Origin: Candidatus Aegiribacteria sp.
GTDB lineage: Bacteria; Fermentibacterota; Fermentibacteria; Fermentibacterales; JCC-6
Reading direction: 5' to 3'
NCBI GenBank assembly: GCA_030613065.1
Contig: JAUWMQ010000005.1
Coordinates: 1-49,207, forward strand
Length of the DNA: 49,207 bases
Shown here: positions 3,281 to 44,932 of the stretch, one piece after another
Position numbering within the stretch: position 1 is the first letter of the stretch
Layout of the letters: every line of letters starts with the position of its first letter
Program-made: the position numbers and the translations under genes
Notes under the pieces: generated by a model
Databases searched by the model: none
What the model saw: only the letters and a program-made list of their open reading frames with translations
Told to the model about the DNA's origin: nothing

Positions 3281-3988
3281 GTGAACGTGATTACTTCTGT
3301 TCAGACTATTGAAAACAATCTTCAGACTGCTGTGGAGCTGGTCGAGAATGCTCTCAATTCCTGCGGGGAGAGCGACCGTACGGTCGCAATAATGGCAGTC
3401 ACGAAAACACATCCTGTAGAAGTCGCAAAGATGGCTATCGAAGCCGGCATCGCGCTCCTCGGAGAAAATCGAGTCAGTGAGGGGGGACGCAAAATAAAAG
3501 CGCTGGGAAAGGCTGCTGCTGAATTTCATATGATCGGCCCCATACATACGGGAGAGGTTCGGCAGGCCGTACGGGATTTTCACTGGATAGATTCCGTTGG
3601 TAGATTGAAAATCGCCAGAGAAATAGCTCGAAAAACGGTTTCAAGAGGAGAGGAGCAGCCTGGTATCCTTGTAGAGGTGAATACATCCGGAGAAGAATCC
3701 AAACATGGCTTCAATCCAGACTATCACGAGCTCTGTGACGTTCTGGGTGAGATCAGTGAAACCGGTCTGCGTATTTCAGGATTGATGACGGTAGGGCCCC
3801 TTGGAGGAAGCGAACTGGATACCTCTGAAGCCTTCGCTCTTCTCAGGCAGCTCAGGGACCGTCTTGAAAGCAGCTCTGATTATGACCTCTCCGAACTTTC
3901 CATGGGGATGAGTGATGATTTCGTACTCGCGGTTAAAGAAGGGGCAACAACCATCAGGCTCGGCAGATACCTTTTCGGTCAAAGGTAG
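3281..3988 (+). CDS. yggS: PLP homeostasis protein (YggS/PROSC family)
   Basis: MAVTKT (PLP lysine), GENRV, HMIGP, GLMT, LSMGMSDDF, GATTIRLGRYLFG. Confidence 0.93.
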   Translation: MNVITSVQTIENNLQTAVELVENALNSCGESDRTVAIMAVTKTHPVEVAKMAIEAGIALLGENRVSEGGRKIKALGKAAAEFHMIGPIHTGEVRQAVRDFHWIDSVGRLKIAREIARKTVSRGEEQPGILVEVNTSGEESKHGFNPDYHELCDVLGEISETGLRISGLMTVGPLGGSELDTSEAFALLRQLRDRLESSSDYDLSELSMGMSDDFVLAVKEGATTIRLGRYLFGQR

Positions 3989-4099: not shown

Positions 4100-4633
4100 G
4101 TGCGTATTACACCTCTTGATATTAGAAGACAGAATTTTCGCAAAACCATGAGAGGTTACGATGTAGATGAGGTTGAGGCGTTCCTTGAAATGGTCGCGTC
4201 CGCCTGGGAGGAACTTGTCGATAACCTTGAGAATGCTGAGAAAGAATTGATCGTCCTAAGAACCAGAGCAGCGGATTTTGACCGGATGGAAGGCGCTGTA
4301 AGGGATGTACTTGTACAACAGCAGCAGAGCGCTGCGCAGGCAAGAAAGGAAGCTGACCGAGAGGCTGAGCTTATTATCATGGATGCCGAGGTTAAATCAT
4401 CCAATCTTGTATCCGAAGCCAGGGAAAGGGTTCAGGTTCTGACTGAAACTATCCGTGAGCTGCAGGATAGAAGACTGTCAGTGCTGTCGCAGATAAGGTC
4501 ATTCGTTGATTCTCACAGAAAAATGCTGGATCTTGAGGAGGAAAGAATTAAATCAGAAATGATCCCTGATGAAGAAAGACTGCCCGGTGAAGAGGATGGC
4601 GACGTTCCCATACTTGAATTAACGGAGCTCTAG
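4100..4633 (+). CDS. divIVA: DivIVA-domain coiled-coil protein
   Basis: N-terminal ITPLDI..QNF..MRGYDVDEVEAFL signature followed by a coiled coil; GGAG RBS before the GTG start. Confidence 0.88.
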   Translation: MRITPLDIRRQNFRKTMRGYDVDEVEAFLEMVASAWEELVDNLENAEKELIVLRTRAADFDRMEGAVRDVLVQQQQSAAQARKEADREAELIIMDAEVKSSNLVSEARERVQVLTETIRELQDRRLSVLSQIRSFVDSHRKMLDLEEERIKSEMIPDEERLPGEEDGDVPILELTEL

Positions 4634-4635
4634 AA

Positions 4636-7600
4636 ATGTCTGTCCTGCTCATTTTACTGCTAGGCTTAAACTCCATTTCATCTCCCTCAAGGCAGGCAAG
4701 CGATACGCCGGTACAGGTGGGAACATCCTCAACATTTCTCACATGGGTGTGTTCTGGGGTAGAGCCGATTGAATGGCTGCCGGAGGGCCTGACAGGTTAT
4801 TACGCGGACAACTGCGGCTTATCCGGATCTTCAGGTTCCGTACTGCTGCCAGGGGCGAACCTGTTTTTCGCGATACCACCTGGTGTTGAGCCGGAGCTGG
4901 AGATTATTCCCGAGGGGGTTCGTTACCTTTCGGGAGGTACCGTATCGAGCGTAAGTGTATCGTCAGACGGAATAGACATGTTTGATGCGGCAGCCGTTGA
5001 AGATATCCCGCGAACGTGGGGTCAGATAAAAGGTACCGGAACATTCAGAAGAGCAGGCTACGCTCATATTCAGCTGTATCCTGTAATAAGCCGTAATGGT
5101 GCTCTTTATACAGCCGACAGGTTCCAGGTACGCTTGAATTATCCCGATGCCGGACCATCGGTTTCCGCATCAGGGGTAAGCGGCACCATATTCGATGCCC
5201 TGTTCGAAGGTGGAAATCAGATATGGAAAACTCCTGAAGAAAGAATTGATTCAAGCCCCTTCTGGGGTCTTCCCTGGTATGCCCTGGATATTGATACGGC
5301 AGGAGTATACTGTATTACCGGAGCTGATATCCCTTTGGCGGATGGTACTTCATCGGCCAGTCTTTCGCTGTTCTGCGGCAGAGGACGCGAAATGGGGGAG
5401 GAACCCTGGCTGGATGAGTATATCCCAAGGCCTGTTCCAATATTGGTTGATGACGGTGGAGACGGTGTCTTCAATTCAGGAGACAGACTATTCTTCTTCG
5501 GAAGAGGGCTGGCATGGTGGGAACCCACCAATGACAGTCTTCCTGCCCACTTTAATCACAGGTTTGCAACCAGTAACACCTACTGGCTGACATGGGGCGG
5601 GGAAGACGGAGCCAGGATGAATGTTCAGAACGGGGAACTGACCGGTGCTCCGGCAATGCCCGACAGTTTTCTGTCAAGGCAGCATCTGGAACAAAACCAT
5701 ACCAGAACCCGTGGAATCGTAAATCTGTCGGATGACTGGGCATGGATCCTGTCCGAAGGCAGTTCTGACACCTGGCATTACCTTAATTTTGATGCTCCGG
5801 AGGCTGAAGGCAGCGCTCTCCTGAAGATTAAACTGATTTCAAACGTCGGTATCAGGCATCGCATCAGAATACTGCTGAATGGAACCGCAGTGTGCGATAC
5901 AACCTGGGACGATACAGGTGTATTCATGCCCACTGTGCCCATGGATGGGATTCTGGATTCGGGGAACTTGCTCGCCCTGGAATTAATAAGGATGTCAGGG
6001 AGTGATACGGTTTTCCTTGACTGGTTTGAAGTCTTCAGCTGGACTGATAATTCGCTTTCGGGTCAGGTTCAGGTACCCCTGGAATGGTGGCCTGTTTACG
6101 ATCGTCAGGAATTCACATGGGGAAATGATCTCAGTGATGCCCTGGTTTTCCTGGTGAGTGGTGATACACTTGCGGAGAACATCAGTGTTGACGACCCGCA
6201 TCAGTTCGAATTTGAAGTGCCTGTTTCCTGGGAGGCCAGGGAACTCTGGATCTCAGATTACGGTGATATGCGCTCTCCTGCAGAAGTACGGTATGAATCA
6301 CCGGGCAGGATCATCGGATCCCTGAATGGTGCCCGGTGCCTCTTCGTTGCGGCAGATGAGTTTTTCAATGACATAACCCCGCTGACGCAGCTGAGCGGAG
6401 ATCTGATCGCGGTCAGAGCTTCAGAGGTTTACAACGAATTCAACGGGGGTGTAAGAGATCCCCGGGCAATACAGGCGATGGTTTCAAATATCATCGATTC
6501 CTGGCACACGATACCGGAAAACCTGATTCTTGTAGGGGGCGGCAACTGGGATCCGCTCAATTTCGTTTCCAGCAAGATCTCTTACATTGATATTCTATAC
6601 ATAAGTAAATACTCAATATTTGTGTCGGATGATAAGTTTTCGATAGTTGAGGGATCCCATCTTCCTCAGATAGCGCTATCCAGAATGGGGATAACCAACC
6701 GTTCGGACCTGCAGCTGCTGGTCGACAGGAGTCTTTCATACCGCAGCAGCGAAAACTGCGGGGAATGGCAGACCGTTGTTCTGGGTGCTGCCGACGATGA
6801 GCGGTCACCTGAGGGCGGGGATGACGAAAGGTATCATACACAGAGTGTTGAGAGGCTATTGACTGATCATCTTCCCGATGTGCTTCGCCCCGAAAAGCTC
6901 TATCTTATTCTCTACAATTGGAACAGTTTATGGAAGAAACCCGAGGCACGGCTGGATTACATAGACCTCTGGAGCGAAGGGGCGCTTGTCTCACTCTACC
7001 TTGGACATGGCGGCTATGACCAGCTGGCGGACGAAGGTCTTCTCTACCTTGAAGACAGCGGGCTCCTTGCGTGTGAGAAGCGGCTTCCAGTGGCTCTTTT
7101 CGGTTCCTGCGATGTCGGGCAGTTTCAGAATCCTTCGTCCGAATGCCTGGCTCAGCAGGTCACAACTTCTCAGGCGGGGGGAGCGATACTCGGCCTTGGA
7201 GCCACGGGCTTAACATCCGGTCCCCAAAACGAAATTTTTGTAGCCTATATTCTGGATAACTTTTTCAGTGAACCGGATCTTTCGGTGGGCATGTGCGCAA
7301 TGCTCGGGAAGATCAGTGCGGGTTACAACTCTAATATGGCCAAGTACATACTTTTTGGCGACGGAAGCCTCAAGCTTGCTTTCCCCTGGGATTCGTTCAG
7401 CGTCTCTAGCGATACTGTTTTTGCGGGGGAAGAAGTTACTCTCACCGGCACGGCACCTTCTGATGGCATTATTTTCGTTGAATCATGGGAATCGTGCCGG
7501 CCGGATACACACTACACTTTAGGCTCTCATTTACCTATTGAATACCTGTCAGTTCCAGGTAGATTCTATTCCGGTACGGTTTACGCTGAACCAGGTTACA

Positions 7601-8382
7601 GCGCGAGCATGTTCGTACCGGTAGACAGTGATACAGGAGCCCTGGCCAGAACCCAGCTTACATTCCTCAGCAGCAACGGCTTTGCAGCTGCTTCAACCTA
7701 CCCCGCAATGCTTTTGTTGGGAAATCCCCTTCCGGATAACGAGGGCCCCTCGATAGAACTCTGGGTCGAGGGATACCGGAACGCAACTAATCCTGAGATC
7801 TCAGGCGATATTAATGTCAGGGCCATTCTTTCGGACAGTTCCGGCATTAACCTTCTGGGTAATGTGGGCCGTCAGCTTGCTCTTTATGTGGATGGCACAG
7901 CTGATGATGTTTCTGACTGTTTTCAGTATCACAACGGTTCAAGTACTACTGGTGAACTCAGGGTTGGAATCGGTGTTCTTGAACCCGGGGGCCATATCAT
8001 TCAGTTAAGAGCGTCAGACGGACTCCTGAATTCAACCATTGTCGAGATAGAGATCACCGTAACCGAGGATAATTCATTCGGGATCAGTGGTGTATTTCCT
8101 TATCCGAATCCATGTAACGACGGCACATCCATAAACTGGACACAGTCATCACCTGGAAAGGTTGATATTTCTGTATACACGATTGCCGGTAGAAGGCTGA
8201 TTTTGTTCGGGAACATTGAAGGAACAGACGGATATAACCAGTGCTGGTGGGACTGCAGAGATGTAGATGGAGATGCAGTGGCCAGCGGAACGTATATCTT
8301 TGTTGTATCTGCTGCTTCGATTTCCGATACTGGAGAGAATTCAGAGGCTACAGGAATAATAGCAGTTGTACGTAACCAGTAA
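4636..8382 (+). CDS. porU: C25 (gingipain-family) cysteine protease, PorU sortase-like, with a C-terminal T9SS type A/FlgD-like domain
   Basis: N-terminal hydrophobic signal; C25 features VYNEFNGG, YLGHGG (His), FGSCDVG (Cys), YILFGD; PorU-like DNEGPSI...DSSGINL segment; C-terminal YPNP...SVYTIAGR...WDCRD..G..VASGTYIF. Confidence 0.8.
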   Translation: MSVLLILLLGLNSISSPSRQASDTPVQVGTSSTFLTWVCSGVEPIEWLPEGLTGYYADNCGLSGSSGSVLLPGANLFFAIPPGVEPELEIIPEGVRYLSGGTVSSVSVSSDGIDMFDAAAVEDIPRTWGQIKGTGTFRRAGYAHIQLYPVISRNGALYTADRFQVRLNYPDAGPSVSASGVSGTIFDALFEGGNQIWKTPEERIDSSPFWGLPWYALDIDTAGVYCITGADIPLADGTSSASLSLFCGRGREMGEEPWLDEYIPRPVPILVDDGGDGVFNSGDRLFFFGRGLAWWEPTNDSLPAHFNHRFATSNTYWLTWGGEDGARMNVQNGELTGAPAMPDSFLSRQHLEQNHTRTRGIVNLSDDWAWILSEGSSDTWHYLNFDAPEAEGSALLKIKLISNVGIRHRIRILLNGTAVCDTTWDDTGVFMPTVPMDGILDSGNLLALELIRMSGSDTVFLDWFEVFSWTDNSLSGQVQVPLEWWPVYDRQEFTWGNDLSDALVFLVSGDTLAENISVDDPHQFEFEVPVSWEARELWISDYGDMRSPAEVRYESPGRIIGSLNGARCLFVAADEFFNDITPLTQLSGDLIAVRASEVYNEFNGGVRDPRAIQAMVSNIIDSWHTIPENLILVGGGNWDPLNFVSSKISYIDILYISKYSIFVSDDKFSIVEGSHLPQIALSRMGITNRSDLQLLVDRSLSYRSSENCGEWQTVVLGAADDERSPEGGDDERYHTQSVERLLTDHLPDVLRPEKLYLILYNWNSLWKKPEARLDYIDLWSEGALVSLYLGHGGYDQLADEGLLYLEDSGLLACEKRLPVALFGSCDVGQFQNPSSECLAQQVTTSQAGGAILGLGATGLTSGPQNEIFVAYILDNFFSEPDLSVGMCAMLGKISAGYNSNMAKYILFGDGSLKLAFPWDSFSVSSDTVFAGEEVTLTGTAPSDGIIFVESWESCRPDTHYTLGSHLPIEYLSVPGRFYSGTVYAEPGYSASMFVPVDSDTGALARTQLTFLSSNGFAAASTYPAMLLLGNPLPDNEGPSIELWVEGYRNATNPEISGDINVRAILSDSSGINLLGNVGRQLALYVDGTADDVSDCFQYHNGSSTTGELRVGIGVLEPGGHIIQLRASDGLLNSTIVEIEITVTEDNSFGISGVFPYPNPCNDGTSINWTQSSPGKVDISVYTIAGRRLILFGNIEGTDGYNQCWWDCRDVDGDAVASGTYIFVVSAASISDTGENSEATGIIAVVRNQ

Positions 8383-8418
8383 CTGGTAATGATGCTGGCT
8401 GTGGTAATGATGCTGCCT
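8383..8418 (+). repeat. Tandem 18-bp direct repeat, 2 copies
   Basis: CTGGTAATGATGCTGGCT / GTGGTAATGATGCTGCCT, immediately after the C25 gene stop. Confidence 0.6.
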
Positions 8419-8503
8419 GACAGTTGGTCGGGATTGAAAAACCAAGCAGATGTAAATGATATGGATGATCCGGAAGAGCTTCCGGTTTAAAGCAGGAGGA
8501 ACA

Positions 8504-9508
8504 ATGAATAAAGGACTTCTTTTAATTACCATGATTCTTGCCCTGGCTTCGGTCTCGTTCGCTTCTACAGCAAGTGTTATCTGGATGACAATAACTCCGG
8601 GTGCACGCCCGAATGGTATGGGTGAAGCTTTTACTGCTCTGGCCAACGATGCAACCGCGTCGTACTGGAATCCGGCGGGGCTGGCTTTCGTCGACACCAC
8701 CGGAAATGAACTTACCCTGCAGCACAGCAACTGGCTTCCCCAGCTGGCTGATGACCTGTACTACGAGTTTCTGGGTTACGCCACGAACATTGAAGGGTGG
8801 GGCGGTGTTGGAGGGAACATCACTTTCATGTCAATGGGTGAACAGCTGGAAACGACCGAATCGGGACAGGAACTTGGATCATTCTATTCGTATGGTATCG
8901 CCCTGACTGGTTCCTTCGGAACCGAAGTGGCTCCCGGCGTTGCTGTGGGACTGGGTCTGAAATTCATTTACGATCATCTCTACTACAAGGATGAGGGCAA
9001 AGGTACGTCCTTCGCGGCTGACCTTGGAGTGCTGTACCATCTACCCATGGAGGCGCTCGGGCTTGAAAGCGCTGGTCAGGTGAACATAGGTGCGAGTCTG
9101 ACAAACCTTGGACCCAATGTAAGCTACGGGGGCAATGCCGAGAATAATCCCCTTCCGCGAACCATCAGAATGGGAATTGCCTACATCCCATTTGATTCTC
9201 ATCTGACACGTCTCAGGTGTACTGCAGATTACAGCAAGCTTCTGACCAACGTCGATGAAGGAATGGCAACGGAGTTCAACGAGAACAAATGGGGAGCCGG
9301 AGCCGAGTTCTGGTATTACGACCTTCTGGCTCTCAGGGCAGGATTCATCCACGACACGGAGGGCATTTCAACTATCCAGGGACCTACCTTCGGCGCAGGA
9401 CTTCAGTATGCCGGTTTCCAGCTTGATATGGCCTTCATACCCGTAGAGGAGAATCTGCAGGGTTCAGGGAAGTACAATTCCAAATACTCCCTTTCCGTAA
9501 GGTTCTAG
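8504..9508 (+). CDS. porV: PorV/PorQ-family outer-membrane beta-barrel (T9SS cargo shuttle-like)
   Basis: ITPGARPNGMGEAFTALANDATASYWNPAGL and HSNWLP are characteristic PorV-family N-terminal motifs; ends in ...LSVRF; AGGAGG RBS before ATG 8504. Confidence 0.85.
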   Translation: MNKGLLLITMILALASVSFASTASVIWMTITPGARPNGMGEAFTALANDATASYWNPAGLAFVDTTGNELTLQHSNWLPQLADDLYYEFLGYATNIEGWGGVGGNITFMSMGEQLETTESGQELGSFYSYGIALTGSFGTEVAPGVAVGLGLKFIYDHLYYKDEGKGTSFAADLGVLYHLPMEALGLESAGQVNIGASLTNLGPNVSYGGNAENNPLPRTIRMGIAYIPFDSHLTRLRCTADYSKLLTNVDEGMATEFNENKWGAGAEFWYYDLLALRAGFIHDTEGISTIQGPTFGAGLQYAGFQLDMAFIPVEENLQGSGKYNSKYSLSVRF

Positions 9509-9514
9509 ATAAAA

Positions 9515-12346
9515 ATGAGAAATCTCTTACCGATGCTGCTGTTCATCCTGATCGGAGCGGTTTCGGCTGCCCCGCCTATAATTCACGGAGCCGTACCGCC
9601 ACTGCATGAAAGACCCTCAGAAGGGGCCGCGATTGCCGGGCCTGGCAAGGTCGACAGCTCTGATGAAACTATGAATGTCTGTATGATAAGGGCGCAGTTT
9701 CTGGAGGATTTTACCGATGAAACCAGCGGGAACGGTAGAATTGATCTGAGCGCCGACCCGCCCCATAACAAGGATTATTTTCAGGGCATAGCAGACGATA
9801 TCGCTTCCTATTACGTGGATATAAGCGGAGGAGAACTGGTTCTTTCCATTGATGTATACCCAGCATCAATGAATGGTTCTTATACAATGCAGCACCAGAT
9901 GATGTATTATGGTAACGACGCGAACTACATGCAGGGGGCATGCCTGCTTCTGGAGGACGCTGTCCTGCAGGCGGATGAGGATATTGATTTTAGTCTGTAC
10001 GATGCGGTTATTGTCATTCATGCCGGTTCCGGTCAGGAAGCTGACATTTACAGGAACAGCCCGGGAGACATCGGATCGCTCTTCCTTACCCTGACTGATT
10101 TGATCTTTTACCTCCCCGGGGCAGGCCTGGGATTTCAGGGAATTCGCACATCCGACGGAGTTTTCGTCCGTGAGGGCATGATCGTACCCGAGCAGGAATC
10201 ACAGGACGGATTCGGCCTTGGCGTGCTTGGAACCATCTGCCACGAATTCGGACACCAGCTGGGGTTGCCGGATCTTTACGATACCAGTACGGGACATGTG
10301 GGAGTCGGCGGCTGGGACCTGATGGGTTACGGTCAGTGGATTATGAGCGGTTACTGGCCTGCGTCACTCAGCGCGTGGTCCAGGATATATCTCGGCTGGG
10401 ATACGGCTACGGAAGTATCCGATGGAACCTTCACACTGGCTTACAACGATTCGATTCTTAAAATTCCTCTTAACGGCTCGGAGTATCTGCTGGTGGAAAA
10501 CAGGCAGCGTGACCCTGATGGGAACGGGATGTGCGGAATACATGAGCACGATTTCGGCCTTCCCGGTTCAGGGGTTCTGATATGGCATATCGATGAAACT
10601 CGTCTGGGAGATTACCTCGCAATGAATATGGTCAATGTGGACCCCGAGCATAAAGGTGTTGATCTTGAGGAAGCTGACGGTATACAGGATTTTGACTATT
10701 CACTTCCCGATATATACGGTTACGAAGGCAGTGAGTTCGACCCCTGGTTCCCGAGTGGTTACGCCTGGGAGTTTTCTCCCACCTCCGAACCATCAAGCGA
10801 TGCCAGCTGGGGAGGTAAAACTTTTGTTACGGTAGAAGTCCTGGATGACCCGGCAAACGAAATGGATGTTCTGGTAACAAGAACAACAGTATGTGACGGG
10901 TGGCCCATTCAGGCATCTCTTATTAAATGGGGACCACTGATCTGGGAAGATGCCGATGCTTCAGGAGATCGGCTTGTAGTAACAACGATTACCGGGCACG
11001 TAAGCGCTTATATGCAAGATGGTTCCGGGCCATACCCCATGGGAAATGGAATTACTGCTCCTCCCGTGGCCGAAAACCCTTCTGGCGGTGCATCACTTCT
11101 GCTTGTATGCGGAAACGACGGACAGGTGCATTTAAGGGATATACAGTGGAACGAGCCTGATGGCTGGCCTGTTACTCTTTCGGGAGGCGGCACAGGTACA
11201 ACTGCTCTGATCAGTTCGGAGCTTGGTATTGTAGCGGTGGCCGATGATGTGAGTAAAGTACACCTTTACAATTCCGCCGGAATACAGCAAAGCGGATGGC
11301 CTGTTGATACCGAGGCTCAGGTAGCTGGTATGGCTGTATATCCCGATGATGAGTATCCTGGCATAGTTGCGTCAACGATTGATGGCCGTGTTTATCTCTG
11401 GAATATTGATGGAAGTGAAGCAGATGGCTGGCCCGTTACTCCGGGCGATGAAACAATCAGCATACCCCTATCCGCTGATATAAACCGTGACGGTTCTGCC
11501 GATATCGTCGTAGTCAGCGGTGATTACCTCTACGCATATGACATAGAAGGAGATATCCTTCCGGGATTCCCATCAATGCTTCCCGGTTCCCCTCTCTCTT
11601 CACCCAGTTTGAGTGACCTGAACAGTGATGGAAGACTGGAAACAGTTATCCCCACGGATTGTGGTGCAACTGCTGTTTGCGCCTCGGGTGTCACCCTTGA
11701 GGAGTGGCCCGTGAAGCTTGAACAGGACAGCCTGGTTTCCGGATTCAGCAGAAACAGAATGGGTATCGGAGGCAGCGGGTTTGTATTGATTTCAATGGAT
11801 GACGGCCGGATATGCATGTTCGACTCGGATGGTAAACAGTTCGGAGTATTCCCGGTATCCGTTGGAGACGAACCAATCGGGCGTCCCCTGCTGTGGGATC
11901 CTGAGAATACAGGGAACTGGAGGTTAGTCGCTGCCGACACGAACGGCAATGTCTGCTGCTGGAACATTTCGGTGAAGCCTGAGGGCTGGTTCACCGGTAT
12001 GGACATGTCCGGCAGCAACTGCTGGTGGAGTGAGGATCTTCCTCCTGCTCCGGTTTCCGGCTCCACACTCCGGGAGGGTTCCTTCTACGTTTATCCGAAT
12101 CCGGTTCAGCAGGGAAGCGGAATAATACGTTTCCAGCCCGGTGAGAATTGTTCCTGGGAGATAAGGATATTCAATATGGGTGGCGACCTTGTTGCCCATA
12201 AAACCGGAACAGCACCCGGAGGATCACCCTGGGAAGTACCCTGGAACACCGAGGATCTTGCCCCCGGTGTCTATTTTGTAAGCCTGCACATTTCGAGCCC
12301 AACCGGCTCAACTGATGCTTTATTCCATGCGGCGGTGATAAACTGA
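9515..12346 (+). CDS. M6 (immune inhibitor A-like) metalloprotease with an FG-GAP/VCBS-like propeller and a T9SS type A CTD
   Basis: VIHAG, HEFGHQLGLPDLYDT, WDLMGYG, YLLVENRQ, GVLIWHIDE, LEEADG; repeated (D/S)GWP blades and ADINRDG/DLNSDG motifs; C-terminal YVYPNP...IFNMGG...LAPGVYF. Confidence 0.85.
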   Translation: MRNLLPMLLFILIGAVSAAPPIIHGAVPPLHERPSEGAAIAGPGKVDSSDETMNVCMIRAQFLEDFTDETSGNGRIDLSADPPHNKDYFQGIADDIASYYVDISGGELVLSIDVYPASMNGSYTMQHQMMYYGNDANYMQGACLLLEDAVLQADEDIDFSLYDAVIVIHAGSGQEADIYRNSPGDIGSLFLTLTDLIFYLPGAGLGFQGIRTSDGVFVREGMIVPEQESQDGFGLGVLGTICHEFGHQLGLPDLYDTSTGHVGVGGWDLMGYGQWIMSGYWPASLSAWSRIYLGWDTATEVSDGTFTLAYNDSILKIPLNGSEYLLVENRQRDPDGNGMCGIHEHDFGLPGSGVLIWHIDETRLGDYLAMNMVNVDPEHKGVDLEEADGIQDFDYSLPDIYGYEGSEFDPWFPSGYAWEFSPTSEPSSDASWGGKTFVTVEVLDDPANEMDVLVTRTTVCDGWPIQASLIKWGPLIWEDADASGDRLVVTTITGHVSAYMQDGSGPYPMGNGITAPPVAENPSGGASLLLVCGNDGQVHLRDIQWNEPDGWPVTLSGGGTGTTALISSELGIVAVADDVSKVHLYNSAGIQQSGWPVDTEAQVAGMAVYPDDEYPGIVASTIDGRVYLWNIDGSEADGWPVTPGDETISIPLSADINRDGSADIVVVSGDYLYAYDIEGDILPGFPSMLPGSPLSSPSLSDLNSDGRLETVIPTDCGATAVCASGVTLEEWPVKLEQDSLVSGFSRNRMGIGGSGFVLISMDDGRICMFDSDGKQFGVFPVSVGDEPIGRPLLWDPENTGNWRLVAADTNGNVCCWNISVKPEGWFTGMDMSGSNCWWSEDLPPAPVSGSTLREGSFYVYPNPVQQGSGIIRFQPGENCSWEIRIFNMGGDLVAHKTGTAPGGSPWEVPWNTEDLAPGVYFVSLHISSPTGSTDALFHAAVIN

Positions 12347-13008
12347 TGAAAAATTTCGCGCTTCTGCTCGCATCCGTTCTGATTCTTCTTCCCGGAATCT
12401 CGGAAGCAGATCTGAGCTCCCGAAAGGGAGCAATGCTGCGATCCGTCCTGCTTCCCGGATGGGGTCAGATGCACCTTGGACATTCAACAAGGGGGATAGT
12501 CTTCATGAGTCTTGATGTCCTGACCTGGACAGGAGTTGGACTCTCCTATCTTGAAGGTACCTTCAACAGAGACGATTACAGGTGGCTTGCAGTATCCGAA
12601 GCCGGTGTTTCCGTTTCCGGCAGATCAGGCGATTTCCTCGATGATATGTCAGATTTTGCTTCAAGCGCTGAATTCAACGATTACATTCACAGGCTCGCCA
12701 GGTACTATTACCCCGATGATCCCGATGCTCAGAGGGCATATTTTGAATCCCATGCCCTGTACGGCGGTGACAGTTGGGACTGGTCATCTGACGCGGCCAG
12801 GAACCAGTTCACCGACAGACTGAGAGACAGCAGGCAATGGTTCAGAAGAAGCATGTATATAGCCGCCTTTGCTGTGGTTAACAGGGTTGTAAGTGTGATA
12901 GACGCTTCTCTTCTGGATGAGAGCCAGCCGGGCGTTTACACCTCACTGTCTTTCCCCGAATTCCGTGACTTCTCATCAGTCAGGTTTTCGATAGGAGCCA
13001 GATTCTGA
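12346..13008 (+). CDS. Hypothetical envelope protein (DUF5683-like)
   Basis: Signal peptide; RSVLLPGWGQ motif; VNRVVSVIDA; C-terminal Phe; TGATG-coupled to neighbours on both sides. Confidence 0.6.
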   Translation: MKNFALLLASVLILLPGISEADLSSRKGAMLRSVLLPGWGQMHLGHSTRGIVFMSLDVLTWTGVGLSYLEGTFNRDDYRWLAVSEAGVSVSGRSGDFLDDMSDFASSAEFNDYIHRLARYYYPDDPDAQRAYFESHALYGGDSWDWSSDAARNQFTDRLRDSRQWFRRSMYIAAFAVVNRVVSVIDASLLDESQPGVYTSLSFPEFRDFSSVRFSIGARF

Positions 13009-14672
13009 TGGTATTACTTATTCTCTCGCTGATTCTTCAGAGTTCCGCCCCGGCATGGTGGATCGATGGAACACCTCTGGTTCCGGGTATCATGGAGATA
13101 GAAAGACGCCACGACCCCTCTTTTGAGCCCACTGGTCCCCTCAGTTCCGGCAAGGGTCACAACATAGGAGATACGATAAATTTCTGGTCGATCGATCACA
13201 GTACCCAGTACCCCATGTTCTATCTAACTTCCGCCACCTGCAGGTATGTTGGAGAAAGAACGTACATTTTTGTAGAGGATACTCAATGGGATATTGATAC
13301 GGTCACTCAGAGCTATGTTGACGAGTTTTCAGCCGCCCTGGAGGACAGCACTCCATCGGGGCCCGGAGGAATCGTTGAAACCGATATCGCAGTTTTCGGA
13401 CAACCGCCCGATGCCATCGACGGAGACCCGAAGATCTACTTCCTGGTGCTTGATATCAGGGATGGTTTTATCGATTCGCTGGGTGGTGCCTACATTGCCG
13501 GTTTCTTCAGCCCCTACAATCAGTTCACCGAGACCGAGGCGTATCTTTACTACGGTGGGCATTCCAACGAAGTTGAGATGCTTTACATAGATTGTCACCC
13601 GAGTAATCAGAGTGATGCGGCTTACACGGCATCTCATGAACTTGTGCACCTTATCCAGTGGGGAATTCAGCCCTTCAGCTACGAGGAGCTGTGGGTGATA
13701 GAGAACCAGGCCCAGTCAGGAACATTCGTATGCGGTTATCCCGCGTTCCAGATTGAAACATTCCTGGAGGTGGGGGGAATAACCCCTATCAAGTGGACGA
13801 ATCTGGAAGACATCATAGAATACGTTGCAGGCTACGGGGCAGGCTACCTTTTCTTCGCTTACCTGTACGAGAATTATGGTGGAGTGGATTTTCTTCATGA
13901 ATCCCTGAGATCCGCAGAGCGCGGAATTGCTGGAATAAGTGAGGCCATCCGCGACGTCACCGGTTCGAATCCCGATATGAACCGGATTCTCCTTGACTGG
14001 ATGCTGGCCTGCTGGATAGATGATCCGGACTTCGGCAATGGGAAATACGGATGGGAATCCTTCAGGATCGCTGATTATGATACGGTATCTCCTGGCAACA
14101 GACCCGGGCTTGATTACACTTTCGAGATAGCCACAGATCCTTTTACGCATTCAGGTGACCATATGTCCTCGTACCAGGGCAGATATTACAGCGTTGATGA
14201 ATTGCTTACAGGCAGCTTCCGCGCTGCGACCTCAGGTCTCGGAGATCTGGAGGCATTCCTGTACGACGACACATTGGGAACACTTGAGGAAGTGAATATC
14301 GGTTCAGCAAACGATGTTGCGATATCACTTCCTGTAGAAGCTGACATTCTACTTCTCTGCAGCTCATTCTCAGGACTTAACCTTGATGTTTCTGCAGGCT
14401 CAGTCCTCTCCTCCGGGGATGTATTCACGTTCTATCCGCAGCCATGCCGCGGTACACTCTACTTCCAGTTTATTTCTGATGGAGGAGATGTGGAACTTTC
14501 GGTATTCACTCTTGCCGGTGAATATGTGGAAACCGTGGGCTTCAGCAGCGTAAACAGCGGAGAAGTGACACTCGCCTATCCCGGTGCGGCCGATCTCTCG
14601 TCGGGTATCTATTTCTTCAGATTCAGCCAGAGCGGCAGCATGGAAACCGGCTCCTTCGCAGTTGTGCGCTAA
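13008..14672 (+). CDS. Secreted zinc metalloprotease (M30/hyicolysin-like) with a T9SS type A CTD
   Basis: DAIDGDPKI, AGFFSPYNQ, SNEVEMLYID, SHELVHLI (HExxH), W..E; C-terminal FYPQP...SVFTLAGE...LSSGIYFFRF. Confidence 0.75.
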   Translation: MVLLILSLILQSSAPAWWIDGTPLVPGIMEIERRHDPSFEPTGPLSSGKGHNIGDTINFWSIDHSTQYPMFYLTSATCRYVGERTYIFVEDTQWDIDTVTQSYVDEFSAALEDSTPSGPGGIVETDIAVFGQPPDAIDGDPKIYFLVLDIRDGFIDSLGGAYIAGFFSPYNQFTETEAYLYYGGHSNEVEMLYIDCHPSNQSDAAYTASHELVHLIQWGIQPFSYEELWVIENQAQSGTFVCGYPAFQIETFLEVGGITPIKWTNLEDIIEYVAGYGAGYLFFAYLYENYGGVDFLHESLRSAERGIAGISEAIRDVTGSNPDMNRILLDWMLACWIDDPDFGNGKYGWESFRIADYDTVSPGNRPGLDYTFEIATDPFTHSGDHMSSYQGRYYSVDELLTGSFRAATSGLGDLEAFLYDDTLGTLEEVNIGSANDVAISLPVEADILLLCSSFSGLNLDVSAGSVLSSGDVFTFYPQPCRGTLYFQFISDGGDVELSVFTLAGEYVETVGFSSVNSGEVTLAYPGAADLSSGIYFFRFSQSGSMETGSFAVVR

Positions 14673-15420
14673 CACCTTAACCTTTCTGCTCGCAGCTCTG
14701 AGTGTTCTCTACGTTTCCGAAACAGCTTCACCACTGCCAGACAGTGATGAACGATACCTTACGGTTCCCGATGGGATAATTGACGCCGAGATAAACGGGG
14801 CAGGGGATATCTACGTGCTTCTGCCGGGGTTGCCTCACCTGCGCATCTACGCAGCGGGGGGGTCCATCTCCGAATATGACCTGTCCGATGTTCTTCTTCC
14901 AGGAGGAATGTGCATCGATGAAAGATGGGGATGGTTTATTACTGGTGAACTCACGGATATGGTTTACCTGTATGACAATGCAGGTGAGCTTACGGATTTC
15001 TGGGATTCCCGCGGCATGCCGGGTGATATATGTCTCAGGGGTTTATCCGTTCTGTACGTTTCACGGGCAAGCGGTACGATTACTCTGATTGATGAACCGG
15101 ATGATATTCTTGTAAGACTGAACGGTTCCGGTAATGGCCAGCTCACCGCGTCGGGAAATGAAGCGGTCTATTCAAGTGGAAACGAATCCCTGCTCCTCAG
15201 AAATTATTCCACCCCCGAATCTTTGCCCGATGCAGGCACTTGGACCGTTGCCGGAAGAGGGATGATGGTTCTGCAGGATTCCTGCGTACTTGACGGTAGC
15301 GGGGCTGTTCTGTTCCAACTGCCCGAACCGGGGGAATTCTCCAGGATATCCTGTTCGGCGAACGGCAATCACTGCCTGCTCTGGACACCGGGGAAAGGCA
15401 GAATTCTGGTGCTGCGATGA
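14662..15420 (+). CDS. Hypothetical exported protein, possible NHL-type beta-propeller
   Basis: Hydrophobic N-terminus after an in-frame TTG at 14662 (start uncertain; ORF track 14584); PGGMCID, GDIYV, VYLYDNAGE blade-like repeats; ATGA overlap with the next gene. Confidence 0.55.
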   Translation: MCANTLTFLLAALSVLYVSETASPLPDSDERYLTVPDGIIDAEINGAGDIYVLLPGLPHLRIYAAGGSISEYDLSDVLLPGGMCIDERWGWFITGELTDMVYLYDNAGELTDFWDSRGMPGDICLRGLSVLYVSRASGTITLIDEPDDILVRLNGSGNGQLTASGNEAVYSSGNESLLLRNYSTPESLPDAGTWTVAGRGMMVLQDSCVLDGSGAVLFQLPEPGEFSRISCSANGNHCLLWTPGKGRILVLR

Positions 15421-18400
15421 GCCTCTTCTCCGCCGCGATAATACTTCTTACATCAATGACCCTGGAGTTTGAAAGTGATGGTTCGGCTTTCTTCGAGACT
15501 CCCGATTCTATCTGGATTGCGCCAGGCTCGATTACAGCCATCGCTGACGGTGATACGCTGAGTGCGGTGCCCGGAACATCGGGAAGTAGGACAGGCGTCA
15601 TTTTCGATCCCCCCCCGCCAGCAGGCTGTACCGTTGAACTGGAATTTGAAGTGCTTCATTTGAGCATCCCTTCATCGACTTCACTTGATGTGGGCTTTTT
15701 AGAGAGGCGGATAATCGAGCAGCTTCGAGGGTATGAAACCGATCCTTTTCAGGAACATGGTCTTTACATATCAGGTTCAAAAAGAATAGGGTTTTCAGTG
15801 GGTGACGGAGGAGGACTGGATCAGGGAACAAGAATTTCGGTTGAAGGCAGCGCGGCTCCGGGAATCACGGTTTCAGGAAGCATAACCGACCGCAACCTGA
15901 CAGCCGGACCCACTTCCTCAGAACTTGTCTCACAGCTTGACAGGATATTTTTCATAGTTGATGGTGGATCATGGAGAGCCAGGCTGGGCGACATGGACTG
16001 GATAAGCGGTAACGGAGAGAACGGACCCCTTTCATGGAGACGGGAAGTAAGCGGAGTTGATGCTCAGGGGGATATCACCAGTTCCATCACCACCGGTGCC
16101 GGTTACGGAACATCGGGGGATTCCAGGCAGAGGTCCGTATTCTATACAGATGAGGGAATTCAGGGGCCATACGATGTGTCAACCGGATGGGAGATCGTCC
16201 CCGGCAGTGAGAAGGTATGGCTGGATGGACAGCTTATGCGCCGTGGCGCCACTGAAGACTACCAGATGGAATATACAGCAGGTCTGATAACTTTCACTGC
16301 AGTGCGACTCATAAGGTATGACCAGAGAGTGGAGATCACCTTCTTCCAGCGAGGTGATGGCTTCAGGAAGGATTTTGTGACCGCCTCCGCGCTCTACTCC
16401 CTAAGCGACCTTGAGATTGAATTCAAGGGTTTCCACAGTTTAGATGACAGGGAATCACCTCTGGGGTTCCTGCTGACCGAAGAGGCGGCTGAAGTTCTCC
16501 GCAACGCCGGCGAGGATCCTGCTGACGCATGGCTTGACGGGGCTACCAGCGTCGGGCAGGGGGAAGGCAGTTATACTCTGGATTCACTGGGACATTACGT
16601 GTATGCAGGACCGAATCAGGGCGACTGGAATGTCATTTTCGGAAGACCGCCATCCGGGAACGGAGATTACATTTTCGACAGTTCACTCGGAGGGTACTTA
16701 TGGGCAGGCGAAGGTAGTGGAACTCATCTGCCGCGTCAGTACGTGCAGATTCCTTCAGGCTACAGTACAGGCGGTTTTAAAGCGGAATACGCATCCGGCA
16801 GTATTGACATGGAGCTTGAAGCAGCCTTTTCCGGAAGAACCGGAAATCTGTACAACCCGGATAATACTTCAAGGGAGGGAACCTGTTTTATCGCTGCCGC
16901 CGAAATGGAATTCTGGGAAGACGGTCCGGGACTGGGTATCGGGGGAAGGATCGTTTCGTCCGGTTACGAACCTCCCGGAGAGCTCGAGCCGGACAGTGCT
17001 CTTTCCGCATGGTCCCTTCCCACACAATACGATGGCAAAGATAACGTCGTGGATGTGAGTCTTGGAGGAGACAGACTTCTTGCGTCTGCTTCGGGCAGAT
17101 TCATGGAATCCGGAGGTATCCTTGAGCGATATCGCATTGCTTCGAATCCTGTTGTGGGGAATATCAGTGTCCAGGCAGGAGGATTATTCCTCAGGAGGAA
17201 CGATACCCCTGAAATGGCTTTAGGTCAGACCTCATCCATCTCCGTATCAGCAATTCCGGTGACAGGTTCGCTCAAACCTTTCGTGGGCTGCAGCTTCTTA
17301 AAGGAGTTCTGGGAGGACAGCCTCTCAGGAGGAGTGAATACAGAATATGCAGGTCTCTCCTATTTCAGGAATACTACCGATGCTCTCCTCCGAATTGAGC
17401 TTCAGGACGACGGAAGGTCCGGTGGAGCTTCAGGCGGATCCTTCAACGTGTGGAGAGCCCGTCTCGAAGGATCCGGTCCCGCTGGTGAATTCAGATACAA
17501 AGGCAGCCTGGAGCATTCTTCAACCTCGTTCGATTCCGGTGGAGAACTCCAGGCGGATGCTATCAGGCTATCCATGACCGGAACATCGGGGGATATATGG
17601 ATGCAGGCGGTCTACAGTGGTTCAGGAACCGTAAGCAGGTCACTTGATGTTATGTTCGTATACGCGGGAGAGGGGGAAGGAAACTACAGCTACGATCCCG
17701 AAAGCGGTCAGTACTACGCTGACCCGGATGGCGATTACATTGTAATCTACCAGCCGGGAGCTGCAGGCGATGTTATTACTTCCGCATCTCTTGAGACTAC
17801 ATTATCCTCAACCGGAGCATCATCCGGCGTCAGTTCCGTTTTAAGGCTATCGGCCAGCAATTCCCTGGACAGAAAAAAATCTCTTCTGCTGTACGGCGCA
17901 TTTGACAGCAGCGAGGAGGGAGGATACAGCCTGGATATTTCACCGTGGTTTCGGTGGGAAACCGCTCTTCTGAGCAGGCTTAATTTCAGAGGGAGGCTGA
18001 GGAATGAAAGGATATCTTACAGTGGCGCGGGATTGAAGGATGAAAGGTTCTGGTCCATAAGGGCGGCGCCGGAGTTAAGCCTTTCGGATATTCTTCTGAT
18101 CGAATGCTCCGCTAAATTCTGGCGTGAGGAGGAGGAACTCTACTACCCTCGAGATACTCGTGGGTTGAGGCTGGAGATCGATCCGACCCTGGAGCTGTTT
18201 CCCGGCCTGAAATCCGGTATCATGACGGCTTACGAGTCCAGAAGAGAAGTGGTTTCAAGTCTGGATAAATACATGATTGAAGCCGGTCCGCATTTCTCCT
18301 GGATCGGTGGAGGCTGGAACGCGACAGCCCTCGTATCCGCGGGATATATACCCGGGGATGATCTGCTTCCCGCATGGTTCTTTGATGGAAACGACAGCGG

Positions 18401-18539
18401 TATCTCATGGAGAACATCTGCAAGGATAGGCAGGAGCCTTTCATCGGGGCTGGATATCAGTATTTTCTACTGGGGAAGAAAACCATCCGGAAGCAGCTGG
18501 AGTCAGAGGGCGGGCCTTGAGGGAACGGTGAATTTCTAG
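15417..18539 (+). CDS. Large outer-membrane protein with a SprA/Sov-like motif
   Basis: 1040 aa; signal peptide; QGPY...IVPGSEKVWLDGQLMRRG..EDYQMEYTAGLITF resembles a motif recalled from SprA-related proteins; alternating amphipathic beta-strands in the C-terminal half; ends in Phe. Confidence 0.55.
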   Translation: MSLFSAAIILLTSMTLEFESDGSAFFETPDSIWIAPGSITAIADGDTLSAVPGTSGSRTGVIFDPPPPAGCTVELEFEVLHLSIPSSTSLDVGFLERRIIEQLRGYETDPFQEHGLYISGSKRIGFSVGDGGGLDQGTRISVEGSAAPGITVSGSITDRNLTAGPTSSELVSQLDRIFFIVDGGSWRARLGDMDWISGNGENGPLSWRREVSGVDAQGDITSSITTGAGYGTSGDSRQRSVFYTDEGIQGPYDVSTGWEIVPGSEKVWLDGQLMRRGATEDYQMEYTAGLITFTAVRLIRYDQRVEITFFQRGDGFRKDFVTASALYSLSDLEIEFKGFHSLDDRESPLGFLLTEEAAEVLRNAGEDPADAWLDGATSVGQGEGSYTLDSLGHYVYAGPNQGDWNVIFGRPPSGNGDYIFDSSLGGYLWAGEGSGTHLPRQYVQIPSGYSTGGFKAEYASGSIDMELEAAFSGRTGNLYNPDNTSREGTCFIAAAEMEFWEDGPGLGIGGRIVSSGYEPPGELEPDSALSAWSLPTQYDGKDNVVDVSLGGDRLLASASGRFMESGGILERYRIASNPVVGNISVQAGGLFLRRNDTPEMALGQTSSISVSAIPVTGSLKPFVGCSFLKEFWEDSLSGGVNTEYAGLSYFRNTTDALLRIELQDDGRSGGASGGSFNVWRARLEGSGPAGEFRYKGSLEHSSTSFDSGGELQADAIRLSMTGTSGDIWMQAVYSGSGTVSRSLDVMFVYAGEGEGNYSYDPESGQYYADPDGDYIVIYQPGAAGDVITSASLETTLSSTGASSGVSSVLRLSASNSLDRKKSLLLYGAFDSSEEGGYSLDISPWFRWETALLSRLNFRGRLRNERISYSGAGLKDERFWSIRAAPELSLSDILLIECSAKFWREEEELYYPRDTRGLRLEIDPTLELFPGLKSGIMTAYESRREVVSSLDKYMIEAGPHFSWIGGGWNATALVSAGYIPGDDLLPAWFFDGNDSGISWRTSARIGRSLSSGLDISIFYWGRKPSGSSWSQRAGLEGTVNF

Positions 18540-19907
18540 ATGATTACCACTATCAGCGCTATACTCTGCATTACTTTTGCGGCGTCCCCTGCGGAGAGTA
18601 AACTCACCGTTGACATTGGTGGCAGTCCTCCCGTTCCCGCTTTGTACGAACTTGGAATTGATTCAGTTCTTGCTTCCGATTCATCAATCACAGTGCTGCA
18701 GGAAAGTGTCCTGCAATGGTATCTAGAAGAAGGATACCCATTTGCCGGTGCTGGTTACTACTTTATATCGGACGATTCCCTTATTGTGAATACTGTTCCC
18801 GGCAGGCACGCCCTCCTTGAAGAAGTTCGCATTGAGGGGGCAGAGGGAACCCGCAGTGAAGTTTTTGAAAGGCTGCTGGTAATTGAGCCCGGCGATCCCT
18901 ACAGCCGTGAGGAGGTTAACGCATGGGTTTCAAGGATCGAGCAGCTGAAGTTTATTAAAGTCGCGGGCACGACCGAGCTGTTCCTTGGAGAGGGCGGCAA
19001 TCTCGTCATCGTACAGCATATTCAGAAAGGGAGGGCAGGGCATTTCGCCGCGTCCATGGAGTGGCAGGGGGATTATCTTGAAGGTGCCGGAGAGGTTCTT
19101 TTCCTGAATCTGGCTGGAACCGCGCGGGAACTGGAGATATCCGGCAAGACTACCGAATGGGGAGGTTTTAACGCGTATCTCAGGTACAGAGAGCCATGGC
19201 TTTTCGGCATTCCCCTTTCAGCCCAGCTTGAAGTATCCCAGGAAATCCCCGAAAGCCTATGGGTCAACCGGGAGGGAATCCTTTCAATTATCTGGAGCTT
19301 TGACCGGTCCGAGATCATTGGAGGAGCCGGTATCTGGAGGGGATATCCCCCGGACGGAGAGCGGCAGAAGTACGATTACGGGCTTGCGGGAATAACATTC
19401 CGCACCGGTTCCAGAGTGCAGCAGGGCTGGGACGGAATTGAGATTCAACTGGAGGCTAGATCCGGCAACAGAACAGGGCAGGATTCTTCCGGTATTCTGA
19501 CAATGGCGGAACTGATAATTAATGGAAATATTTACAGAGGTGTAATTGGTTTCGGGGGTAGATTGCTGACAGGTGGAGTTATGCAGGGGGACTGGTTCGA
19601 AGGTCTTCTTGAACAGCTTGGCGGACAGGAAACCCTGAGGGGTTATCCCGAAAACGCTTTCAGAGCGGTACGATATGCAGTTGCAAGACCTGAGATCTCT
19701 CTGGGCGAAACCGAAACCAGACTATACCTGTTCTGTGATCTCGCTGCCGCTTTAACACCTTTCGATGGGATGAGATATCCCGTAGGCTGCGGGGCCGGAA
19801 TAAGGGGGATGAGCGGTATCTTCTATGCAGATGCAGCAGCCGGATTCCCGTTTCAGGAAGGGCTTGGCAGCGCCAGGCTCTATCTTCGCCTCACCGCTTC
19901 GATATAG
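18540..19907 (+). CDS. Omp85 (BamA/TamA-like) protein with POTRA domain(s)
   Basis: YLEEGYPFA and EVRIEG..GTR POTRA motifs; NLAGTAREL, YREPWLFG, and the loop-6 motif LGG.ETLRGYPE. Confidence 0.78.
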   Translation: MITTISAILCITFAASPAESKLTVDIGGSPPVPALYELGIDSVLASDSSITVLQESVLQWYLEEGYPFAGAGYYFISDDSLIVNTVPGRHALLEEVRIEGAEGTRSEVFERLLVIEPGDPYSREEVNAWVSRIEQLKFIKVAGTTELFLGEGGNLVIVQHIQKGRAGHFAASMEWQGDYLEGAGEVLFLNLAGTARELEISGKTTEWGGFNAYLRYREPWLFGIPLSAQLEVSQEIPESLWVNREGILSIIWSFDRSEIIGGAGIWRGYPPDGERQKYDYGLAGITFRTGSRVQQGWDGIEIQLEARSGNRTGQDSSGILTMAELIINGNIYRGVIGFGGRLLTGGVMQGDWFEGLLEQLGGQETLRGYPENAFRAVRYAVARPEISLGETETRLYLFCDLAAALTPFDGMRYPVGCGAGIRGMSGIFYADAAAGFPFQEGLGSARLYLRLTASI

Positions 19908-26790: not shown

Positions 26791-27029
26791 TTTATTCCTC
26801 CGCTTATTGACCGAAAAGAGATCTCTATTTCTTGTTAGATGAAGAATGTGCATATTGATCAATATAGTCAAGCAACTCAATTTCCACACTTGATTTCAAT
26901 GTTCTATCAAATTGCAGTTCAGCTATCTTCATGATTTACATGAAGAAATGAGAGAGGATTGACATGACTACGCTGAAGAAAGAGTATCCATCGGTATGAA
27001 ATGAGCTATTTATTTGTTGGAGGTTTTGA

Positions 27030-29330: not shown

Positions 29331-29365
29331 CGTACTTTCCTCCATAGTAAGGTGGTTAAATATGG

Positions 29366-29513
29366 GCGTGCAAGGGTGCGGAGTGATCGTAATGCGCACT
29401 CTTCCAAAACGGGATCGCAAAGCGTCACCGATGATGTTGTCGCTCACTCCAGACCACGCTATTTGTCGGGTATAATACGCCAATGATTAGACGGTCTTTG
29501 TACCCCTGCACGC
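29366..29513 (-). ncRNA. Predicted IS110 bridge RNA
   Basis: Outer stem 29366-79/29500-13 encloses two stem-closed loops (29380-86/29444-50 and 29451-55/29493-97) containing segments that match the element junction and the target flanks. Confidence 0.72.
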
Positions 29514-40128: not shown

Positions 40129-40137
40129 GAGGCTTCA

Positions 40138-44030: not shown

Positions 44031-44050
44031 TGAAACTAGGAGGATATTCA

Positions 44051-44869: not shown

Positions 44870-44881
44870 ACGCTTCCTGTA

Positions 44882-44914
44882 AGGGAAGGGCTGCTGACTC
44901 AGCAGCTCTTCCCT
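44882..44914 (+). terminator. Strong intergenic hairpin (terminator or mRNA stabiliser)
   Basis: AGGGAAGGGCTGCTGA-C-TCAGCAGCTCTTCCCT inverted repeat (one G-U pair); no U-tract. Confidence 0.55.
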
Positions 44915-44932
44915 CGAAGTGAGAACAAAATA

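Follow-up and report, generated by a model that had tools for sequence, protein, structure and literature searches.

What is known of the secretion system of type IX (T9SS) comes almost entirely from studies of Bacteroidota. The described systems closest to the locus considered here are the Bacteroidota attachment complex (PorU, PorV, PorQ, and PorZ), the giant outer-membrane barrel SprA/Sov (TIGR04189; structure 6H3I), a trio of NCBIfam models for an M6-like inactivated metalloprotease, PorU2, and PorV2 (NF052323, NF052324, and NF052325, which we take, from their names and adjacent numbers, to form one gene cassette), and the Omp85 insertases and transporters BamA, TamA, and TpsB. The locus is an operon of eight genes on the plus strand (positions 4636-19907) of contig C145, whose entire 49,207 bp constitute the window analysed, in a genome of 2.81 Mb (159 contigs, 92.7% complete). 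This genome was assigned to Fermentibacterota because the closest homologues of three operon proteins (those of 1040, 455, and 252 amino acids (aa)) carry the source names Candidatus Aegiribacteria or Fermentibacteria, with up to 87% identity. An earlier interpretation made from the letters alone (the sequence-only reading) had likewise taken the DNA for that of an organism outside Bacteroidota.

On balance, the locus is probably a conserved operon that processes and attaches the cargo of a type IX-like system, combined with an undescribed outer-membrane module of three genes that encode a propeller protein, a giant barrel (the 1040-aa protein), and a compact Omp85 protein (Table 1). It is not a self-sufficient minimal system. 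SprA is encoded on another contig (C156), about 80 proteins with a C-terminal sorting domain (CTD) are spread across the genome, and extra copies of PorU and PorV are present, so the locus would serve genome-wide cargo and depend on a translocon encoded elsewhere. In several lineages, among them every one of the Fermentibacterota checked, the three-gene module is part of the porU-porV operon, and sequence comparison identifies it as a module conserved among lineages that carry SprA and stand outside classical Bacteroidota. What is new here is the proposal of the propeller, the 1040-aa barrel, and the Omp85 protein as candidate type IX components. Judged by gene neighbourhood, by co-occurrence, and by homology in part, their predicted function is most likely that of an accessory outer-membrane part of CTD secretion or sorting.

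Table 1. Genes of the operon and of its upstream context, in window coordinates
Feature	Position	Strand	Basis
PorU-like C25 sortase, 1248 aa, own type A CTD	4636..8382	+	Peptidase_C25, NF033707, TIGR04183
PorV/PorQ-family outer-membrane barrel, 350 aa	8456..9508	+	NF033709, 227 bits
M6-family metalloprotease, 943 aa, FG-GAP-like repeats, type A CTD	9515..12346	+	TIGR03296, FG-GAP_3, TIGR04183
Secreted or membrane protein, 220 aa, DUF5683-like	12346..13008	+	LLPGWGQ motif; C-terminal ...GARF
Protein of 554 aa with HELVH (nt 13635-13649), type A CTD	13008..14672	+	TIGR04183; no Pfam family
Divergent NHL-like beta-propeller protein, 252 aa	14662..15420	+	Orthologue profile; ORF open from 14584, start at 14662 adopted from orthologues
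"Mini-SprA" outer-membrane protein, 1040 aa, ends ...GTVNF	15417..18539	+	Structure model, SprA profile match
Compact Omp85, 455 aa, two POTRA and 16-strand barrel	18540..19907	+	Pfam POTRA; model; fold match
YggS-like pyridoxal phosphate-binding protein (context gene, outside the secretion set)	3281..3988	+	Pfam Ala_racemase_N, E 3.9e-15
DivIVA	4100..4633	+	Pfam DivIVA, E 4.7e-29; syntenic in 3/3 genomes

The first part of the operon resembles the Bacteroidota attachment complex, in that a C25 sortase with its His and Cys residues and a CTD of its own is followed by a PorV-family barrel and by CTD-tagged cargo, and further PorV/PorQ-family barrels occur in the genome. The sortase matched Peptidase_C25 (Pfam, E 5e-49) and, over model positions 7-1089, the PorU model NF033707 at 311.5 bits, below the equivalog cut-off of 420 bits. 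Its catalytic GHGG (aa 790, nt 7003-7014) and SCD (aa 824, within nt 7102-7119) align with GHGG and TCD of Porphyromonas gingivalis PorU (6ZA2), which bears out the intact C25 motifs recognised in the sequence-only reading. The 350-aa barrel exceeds the 90-bit cut-off of the NF033709 subfamily, scores 159 bits with the PorV equivalog NF033710 (cut-off 250 bits), and matches PorV of Flavobacterium johnsoniae (6h3i_F) with E 2.5e-21. It is the top PorV-family match of the genome, which contains five PorV/PorQ-family loci above cut-off and thus four outside the operon. For PorZ, the NCBIfam scan of the operon proteins matched nothing beyond the CTD.

Two differences from the attachment complex should be mentioned. 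Unlike the Bacteroidota proteins, the operon PorU and PorV fall below their equivalog cut-offs, and three PorU paralogues are present. The other two are arranged in tandem on contig C2 (NF033707, 394 and 388 bits), are 31% identical to the operon copy, and keep GHG and CD; the set of three paralogues was also found in 3/3 other genomes of the phylum. In addition, the operon has genes that are foreign to the complex as described in abstracts, namely those for the M6 protease, the DUF5683-like protein, the propeller, the giant barrel, and the Omp85 protein. On C2 (locus L016, 3-8001), a Sir2-family deacylase gene separates the tandem PorU pair, with a gene for a TPR protein after it, and the tandem pair is present again in 3/3 other phylum genomes.

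The combination of an M6 protease, a PorU, and a PorV is the same trio of protein kinds as in NF052323, NF052324, and NF052325. The operon proteins score well below these models (341.4 against 600, 21.5 against 450, and 56.8 against 325 bits, respectively), and the M6 protein keeps an intact HEFGH motif (aa 243-247, nt 10241-10255), whereas NF052323 is named "inactivated". NF052323 is nevertheless its best whole-protein match, and the M6 domain itself reached 117.6 bits with TIGR03296, above the cut-off of 110.8. By its sequence features the 943-aa protease is a CTD cargo, and it could possibly also be an accessory of the sorting step. The 554-aa protein is probably a secreted metalloprotease cargo as well, judging from its HELVH motif and CTD, of a family unassigned by Pfam.

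The sequence-only reading had seen type A CTD-like ends in three operon proteins, and this was upheld by TIGR04183 (cut-off 23 bits), which lies at or near the cut-off in all three: hmmscan gave 22.7 bits for the PorU-like protein, 23.8 for the M6 protein, and 19.1 for the 554-aa protein, and a six-frame search gave 27.8, 27.5, and 23.3 bits for the three tagged proteins. Genome-wide, the six-frame search returned 88 TIGR04183 matches, 80 of them above the cut-off and three in the operon. The 220-aa protein between the two proteases matched DUF5683 below the Pfam cut-off (17.7 bits), and in the atlas it is placed next to DUF5683-like clusters from Cloacimonadota, WOR-3, and Fidelibacterota, with scores of 0.96-0.97. 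A signal-peptide-like N-terminal stretch was found in 8/8 operon proteins.

With regard to the giant barrel, an AlphaFold model built on 80 sequences (pLDDT 86.3, pTM 0.75) predicts an N-terminal beta-sandwich followed by approximately 42 strands, which begin at residue 115 and run to the C-terminal Phe. Part of the chain is, by profile comparison, homologous to SprA. TIGR04189 matched the protein in one segment (14.2 bits, E 0.0045; cut-off 200), a relative matched in the same segment at 30.9 bits, and hhalign of 80 barrel-family members against 12 SprA sequences of Fermentibacterota and WOR-3 gave 96.9% (E 2e-10, 85 columns), with residues 259-342 placed on SprA residues 542-635, again the segment of the TIGR04189 match. 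The SprA motif claimed in the sequence-only reading, at first a weak hidden Markov model (HMM) match, was later confirmed in this way. In the structural comparison by VIA-align, SprA (6h3i_A) gave the longest alignment with model residues 115-1040 (688 residues, Z 12.8, root-mean-square deviation 9.5), which would fit a giant SprA-like barrel but is not decisive. Foldseek returned generic barrels only (TM up to 0.24). No family in Pfam or NCBIfam exceeded its cut-off for the barrel, Pfam likewise gave none in 17 diverse members, and the barrel profile had 0 sequence matches to solved structures at E up to 1.

Unlike SprA, the 1040-aa protein is half the size or less (SprA of the same genome has 1869 aa), scores 14 bits where 200 are required, coexists with a true SprA, and has conserved neighbours of its own, the propeller and the Omp85 protein. 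It was also considered as the LptD of the genome and rejected, as an LptD match is located on C141 (27.8 bits, cut-off 22.4); such a match was present in 8/9 genomes sampled. In WOR-3, the barrel profile additionally matches frames of about 1800-1900 aa weakly, at profile positions 22-95 and 278-360.

The gene upstream of the barrel encodes a 252-aa protein for which hmmscan gave no family (Pfam, NCBIfam); an identical protein was found in the protein collection. The profile of its orthologues matches NHL-repeat open reading frames (ORFs) located upstream of the barrel in other lineages (96.1%, E 3.3e-9), and Pfam detected NHL repeats in 5/6 upstream ORFs. Lipoproteins of 270 aa at the same position in WOR-3 match those NHL-repeat ORFs as well (96.3%). 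The direct comparison of the 252-aa family with the WOR-3 lipoproteins gave 9.5%, no support, each matching the NHL family separately.

The last gene of the operon encodes the Omp85 protein, which resembles BamA and TamA in its POTRA units and 16-strand barrel. Pfam detected POTRA (E 5e-5, 24.4 bits, cut-off 21.3), the structure model (pLDDT 88.8) contains two POTRA-like units and 16 strands, and fold matches included BamA (E 1e-18, TM up to 0.71) and also TamA (4c00); the POTRA and BamA matches agree with the dedicated Omp85 paralogue proposed in the sequence-only reading. Among the members of its family, POTRA was matched by Pfam in 22/38 and Omp85 in 11/38, and the Omp85 model misses the operon protein itself. 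Close relatives are nearly confined to Fermentibacterota. Unlike BamA, TamA, and TpsB, the protein has two POTRA only and measures just 455 aa. Its identification as the BamA of the genome was rejected, as BamA is encoded on C95 (473 bits); another Omp85 protein is located on C80, so that the operon copy is the third. BamB is a propeller accessory of BamA, and the propeller gene of the module recalls it.

The layout of the operon is as the sequence-only reading had described it, eight genes of the same orientation that mostly abut or overlap, and its gene identities proved correct in the HMM scans, structure models, and motif alignment. At 12346 and 13008 the junctions are one-base overlaps (CTGATG), at 15417-15420 the genes overlap by ATGA, and at 18539/18540 a TAG is directly followed by ATG; the remaining gaps are 2, 73, and 6 nucleotides (nt). 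Within the block, neither promoter-like sites (12 against 16.3 in shuffled sequences) nor terminator-like sites (16 against 15.0) are enriched. The DivIVA gene ends 2 nt before the PorU-like gene and is possibly co-transcribed with the operon.

Conserved synteny, which the sequence-only reading had put forward as a check, was found throughout the phylum sample and in part beyond it. The order YggS-like, DivIVA, PorU, PorV, M6, 220-aa, 554-aa, 252-aa, 1040-aa, and Omp85 was kept in 3/3 other genomes, which represent two families of the phylum and include one assembled as a single contig; the YggS-like gene lies upstream of DivIVA in each. The 252-aa gene was unseen by tblastn in the single-contig genome, but the ORF is present there. 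Outside the phylum, the barrel locus was examined in 20 genomes, one locus each. In five of these, PorU, PorV, M6, and a DUF5683-like homologue of the 220-aa protein stand upstream of the barrel in the same order (tblastn), the homologue thus occupying the same operon position. An Omp85 gene follows the barrel in 10/20 loci by tblastn and in at least 13/20 when Pfam is added: among eight downstream ORFs scanned, Omp85 or POTRA was found in seven, three of which tblastn had missed. These Omp85 partners are 560-660 aa long. The PorU, PorV, and M6 proteins of four other-lineage operons that were scanned show the same pattern of NCBIfam scores below cut-off as the operon described here.

The barrel family is widespread. 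It is single-copy in 67/70 Fermentibacterota genomes (45/46 of the high-quality ones) and occurs in 41/41 sampled WOR-3 genomes. In the barrel library search, 2003 representative clusters were returned at E up to 0.001, and at 1e-30 there were 158, with lengths mostly of 1000-1200 aa; named members belong to WOR-3, Edwardsbacteria, and the "FCB group", and the atlas adds clusters of Zixibacteria and Stahlbacteria. A wider set comprised 151 genomes of 144 genera; SprA (threshold 1e-40) was found in 41 of them and the barrel family (threshold 1e-15) in 46. The two go together: the barrel family is present in 39/41 SprA-bearing genomes and in 7/110 of the others, where five of the seven matches are partial.

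SprA itself was found in the genome studied at C156:1707-7316 (TIGR04189, 436 bits; cut-off 200) and in 70/70 genomes of the phylum, above the cut-off in 67. On C156 (locus L015), the SprA gene has an LptF/LptG-like permease gene on one side and, on the other, a block of type IV pilus genes (PilT, PilC, and two PilB-like ATPases); a sensor kinase and a sigma-54 regulator are encoded there as well.

As to the motor and ring genes, the NCBIfam scan of the 28 window ORFs found no porK, porL, porM, or porN, as the sequence-only reading had noted. In the genome as a whole, GldL, GldM (two models), and GldN had no match, and the same models never matched in any genome searched. GldM was found in 0/46 phylum genomes that are at least 90% complete, with a model of ungauged sensitivity as it matched nowhere, and GldL and GldN were each found in 0/21 that are at least 95% complete (the single-contig genome included), again with no positive control. 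The GldL, GldM, and GldN models were silent, and GldK gave no full match, also in 14 named controls, in 41 WOR-3 genomes, in the 151 wider relatives, and in the genomes with the strongest SprA. GldK gave partial matches only (93-105 bits, cut-off 350), and the candidates carry a generic sulfatase-modifying-factor domain with TPR and have unrelated genes as neighbours. The motor and ring genes are therefore to be described as not found, in searches with no positive control, rather than as absent.

Beyond the phylum, SprA at E up to 1e-40 was observed in 35/145 genomes, in frames of 1835-2364 aa. GldM was found in none of these 35 genomes, and no full GldK match was found in the 12 with the strongest SprA, in both cases with no positive control. 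Either these lineages commonly have SprA but lack the known motor and ring genes, or these families escape the search. In the window, about 5 kb from the operon, a 694-aa protein (24805-26889, minus strand) with carboxypeptidase-regulatory-like and OmpA domains matches the PorE model NF052230 in its C-terminal part only (109 bits, cut-off 600); from this similarity it could possibly be a PorE-like peptidoglycan anchor.

By analogy with Bacteroidota, cargo would pass the inner membrane via Sec and the outer membrane via SprA. PorV would then pick up the translocated cargo, and the PorU-like sortase would cut off the CTD and probably join the cargo to a surface anchor. The giant barrel may act as a second conduit or a docking platform next to SprA. 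The Omp85 protein might insert the giant barrel, with the propeller perhaps assisting it as BamB does BamA. A broader version, which we regard as doubtful, is that in Fermentibacterota, WOR-3, and further lineages outside classical Bacteroidota CTD secretion proceeds without PorLM and PorKN and employs an NHL propeller, a half-size paralogue of SprA, and an Omp85 protein instead, beside SprA, PorV, and PorU, either as an ancestral form or with an alternative drive or gate.

The main rival of the proposed type IX role is that the module belongs to a general outer-membrane system for biogenesis or transport (TAM-like, two-partner-like, or a surface-polymer exporter) and shares only ancestry and neighbourhood with type IX genes. 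We consider it the less likely explanation. The following points speak for it or weigh against a type IX role. The barrel is a single-copy core gene in the phylum and in WOR-3, and it is often unlinked: there is no PorU or PorV within about 10 kb in 15/20 other-lineage loci, and in WOR-3 the barrel is near PorU or PorV in 1/6 loci only and has no Omp85 neighbour by tblastn at any of the six. Some Omp85 partners show weak Pfam matches of the ShlB or two-partner type. In the fold searches, unrelated smaller barrels outrank SprA (Z 13-16.6 over 230-360 residues, with maxima of 15.2 in one search and 16.6 in another); among those with Z 15-16.6 are porins of a generic kind, ushers, and AlgE, the alginate exporter. 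The SprA homology covers a single segment of about 85 residues. In addition, the operon PorU, PorV, and M6 proteins all score under NCBIfam equivalog cut-offs, and the co-occurrence of barrel and SprA could reflect the shared ancestry of related phyla, as kin are not independent.

On the other side, the PorU-PorV-M6 order is shared by Fermentibacterota and by the five other-lineage genomes, the latter of different families. The barrel contains a segment homologous to SprA, and its family is nearly restricted to SprA-bearing genomes. Nor is the barrel the LptD or the Omp85 protein the BamA of the genome, both of which are encoded elsewhere. The reading of the module as an accessory of CTD secretion or sorting is preferred here on these grounds.

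Another explanation is that the genome has an ordinary, complete T9SS whose PorK, PorL, PorM, and PorN are too divergent or were missed, the locus being a porU-porV operon with its neighbours. The Gld models were built on Bacteroidota, and GldL, GldM, GldN, and full-length GldK were matched in no genome, the 14 named controls included, which leaves the sensitivity of the search ungauged. However, the pipeline did score GldK candidates, and these fell far short of the cut-off, with a generic domain and unrelated neighbours; the failure of GldM in all 46 high-quality genomes, the single-contig one among them, points the same way, and this explanation is judged unlikely. A canonical T9SS elsewhere in the genome had been named in the sequence-only reading as the finding that would make the locus an ordinary accessory one, and of such a system SprA was found on C156 and PorKLMN were not, in searches with no positive control.

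The self-contained minimal or ancestral CTD system proposed in the sequence-only reading, in which the 1040-aa barrel would be the translocon in place of SprA and PorKLMN, is the least probable and did not stand: a SprA-segment barrel, PorV, PorU, and CTD cargo do share one operon that recurs in five of the 20 other-lineage genomes, and GldL, GldM, and GldN were not found (with no positive control), but SprA is present on C156, in every phylum genome, and in 39/46 barrel-bearing genomes of the wider set, about 80 CTD proteins, two PorU paralogues, and extra PorV copies lie outside the locus, and the WOR-3 barrel is mostly unlinked to PorU and PorV.

In several abstracts, type IX secretion is called confined to Bacteroidetes. 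The abstract of PMC12398890 speaks of the "FCB superphylum" for it, the introduction of a review (PMC11285876) states that it may also exist in other phyla of the same superphylum, and PMC8542988 names the T9SS in its reference list only. The literature searched yielded nothing joining Fermentibacter and the T9SS, although supplementary gene tables might hold such phyla, and nothing was found on the propeller-barrel-Omp85 module or on the PorU2/PorV2/M6 models. The locus thus provides a concrete, conserved type IX gene set in a phylum for which no report was found. It shows that SprA, PorU, PorV, and many CTD proteins can exist where motor and ring genes of the known kinds escape detection. 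It also brings out an uncharacterised, widespread family of barrels whose occurrence follows that of SprA from genome to genome and which, in several lineages, is encoded in one operon with PorU and PorV. Should the module belong to the machine, its proteins would be testable candidates for gating, energising, and assembly outside Bacteroidota; if it is not, it would still be a core outer-membrane system of several uncultured phyla.

Some other genes were observed near the barrel in WOR-3. In 4/6 loci (L050, L051, L052, and L055) the next gene encodes a conserved protein of about 193 aa that has a single membrane helix at its N-terminus and matched no family. At one of these (L052, genome G073, 12374-15180), a conserved 194-aa membrane-anchored protein and a MotA/ExbB-family gene lie downstream of the barrel homologue, together with a pair of small paralogues (140-142 aa) and one gene of 210 aa; from gene content at this one locus, the set could possibly energise the barrel. 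A 451-aa ORF downstream of the WOR-3 barrel was rejected as an Omp85 protein, showing no similarity and no Pfam match.

In the rest of the window, the operon end is convergent with a gene (20171-23158, minus strand) whose product is a CHASE-PAS hybrid histidine kinase containing a receiver domain, and two other-lineage loci (L082 and L088) have weak matches to this kinase close to the barrel gene. An IS110-family transposase is encoded at 27930-29483 (minus strand), and an IS91-family transposase (47147-48208, minus strand) and a tyrosine recombinase resembling integron integrases (48220-49101, minus strand) are both located at the contig end. A further cluster (39667-46215, plus strand) encodes NuoE-like and NuoF-like proteins, a formate dehydrogenase alpha subunit, a FocA-like formate channel, FdhD, and MobA.

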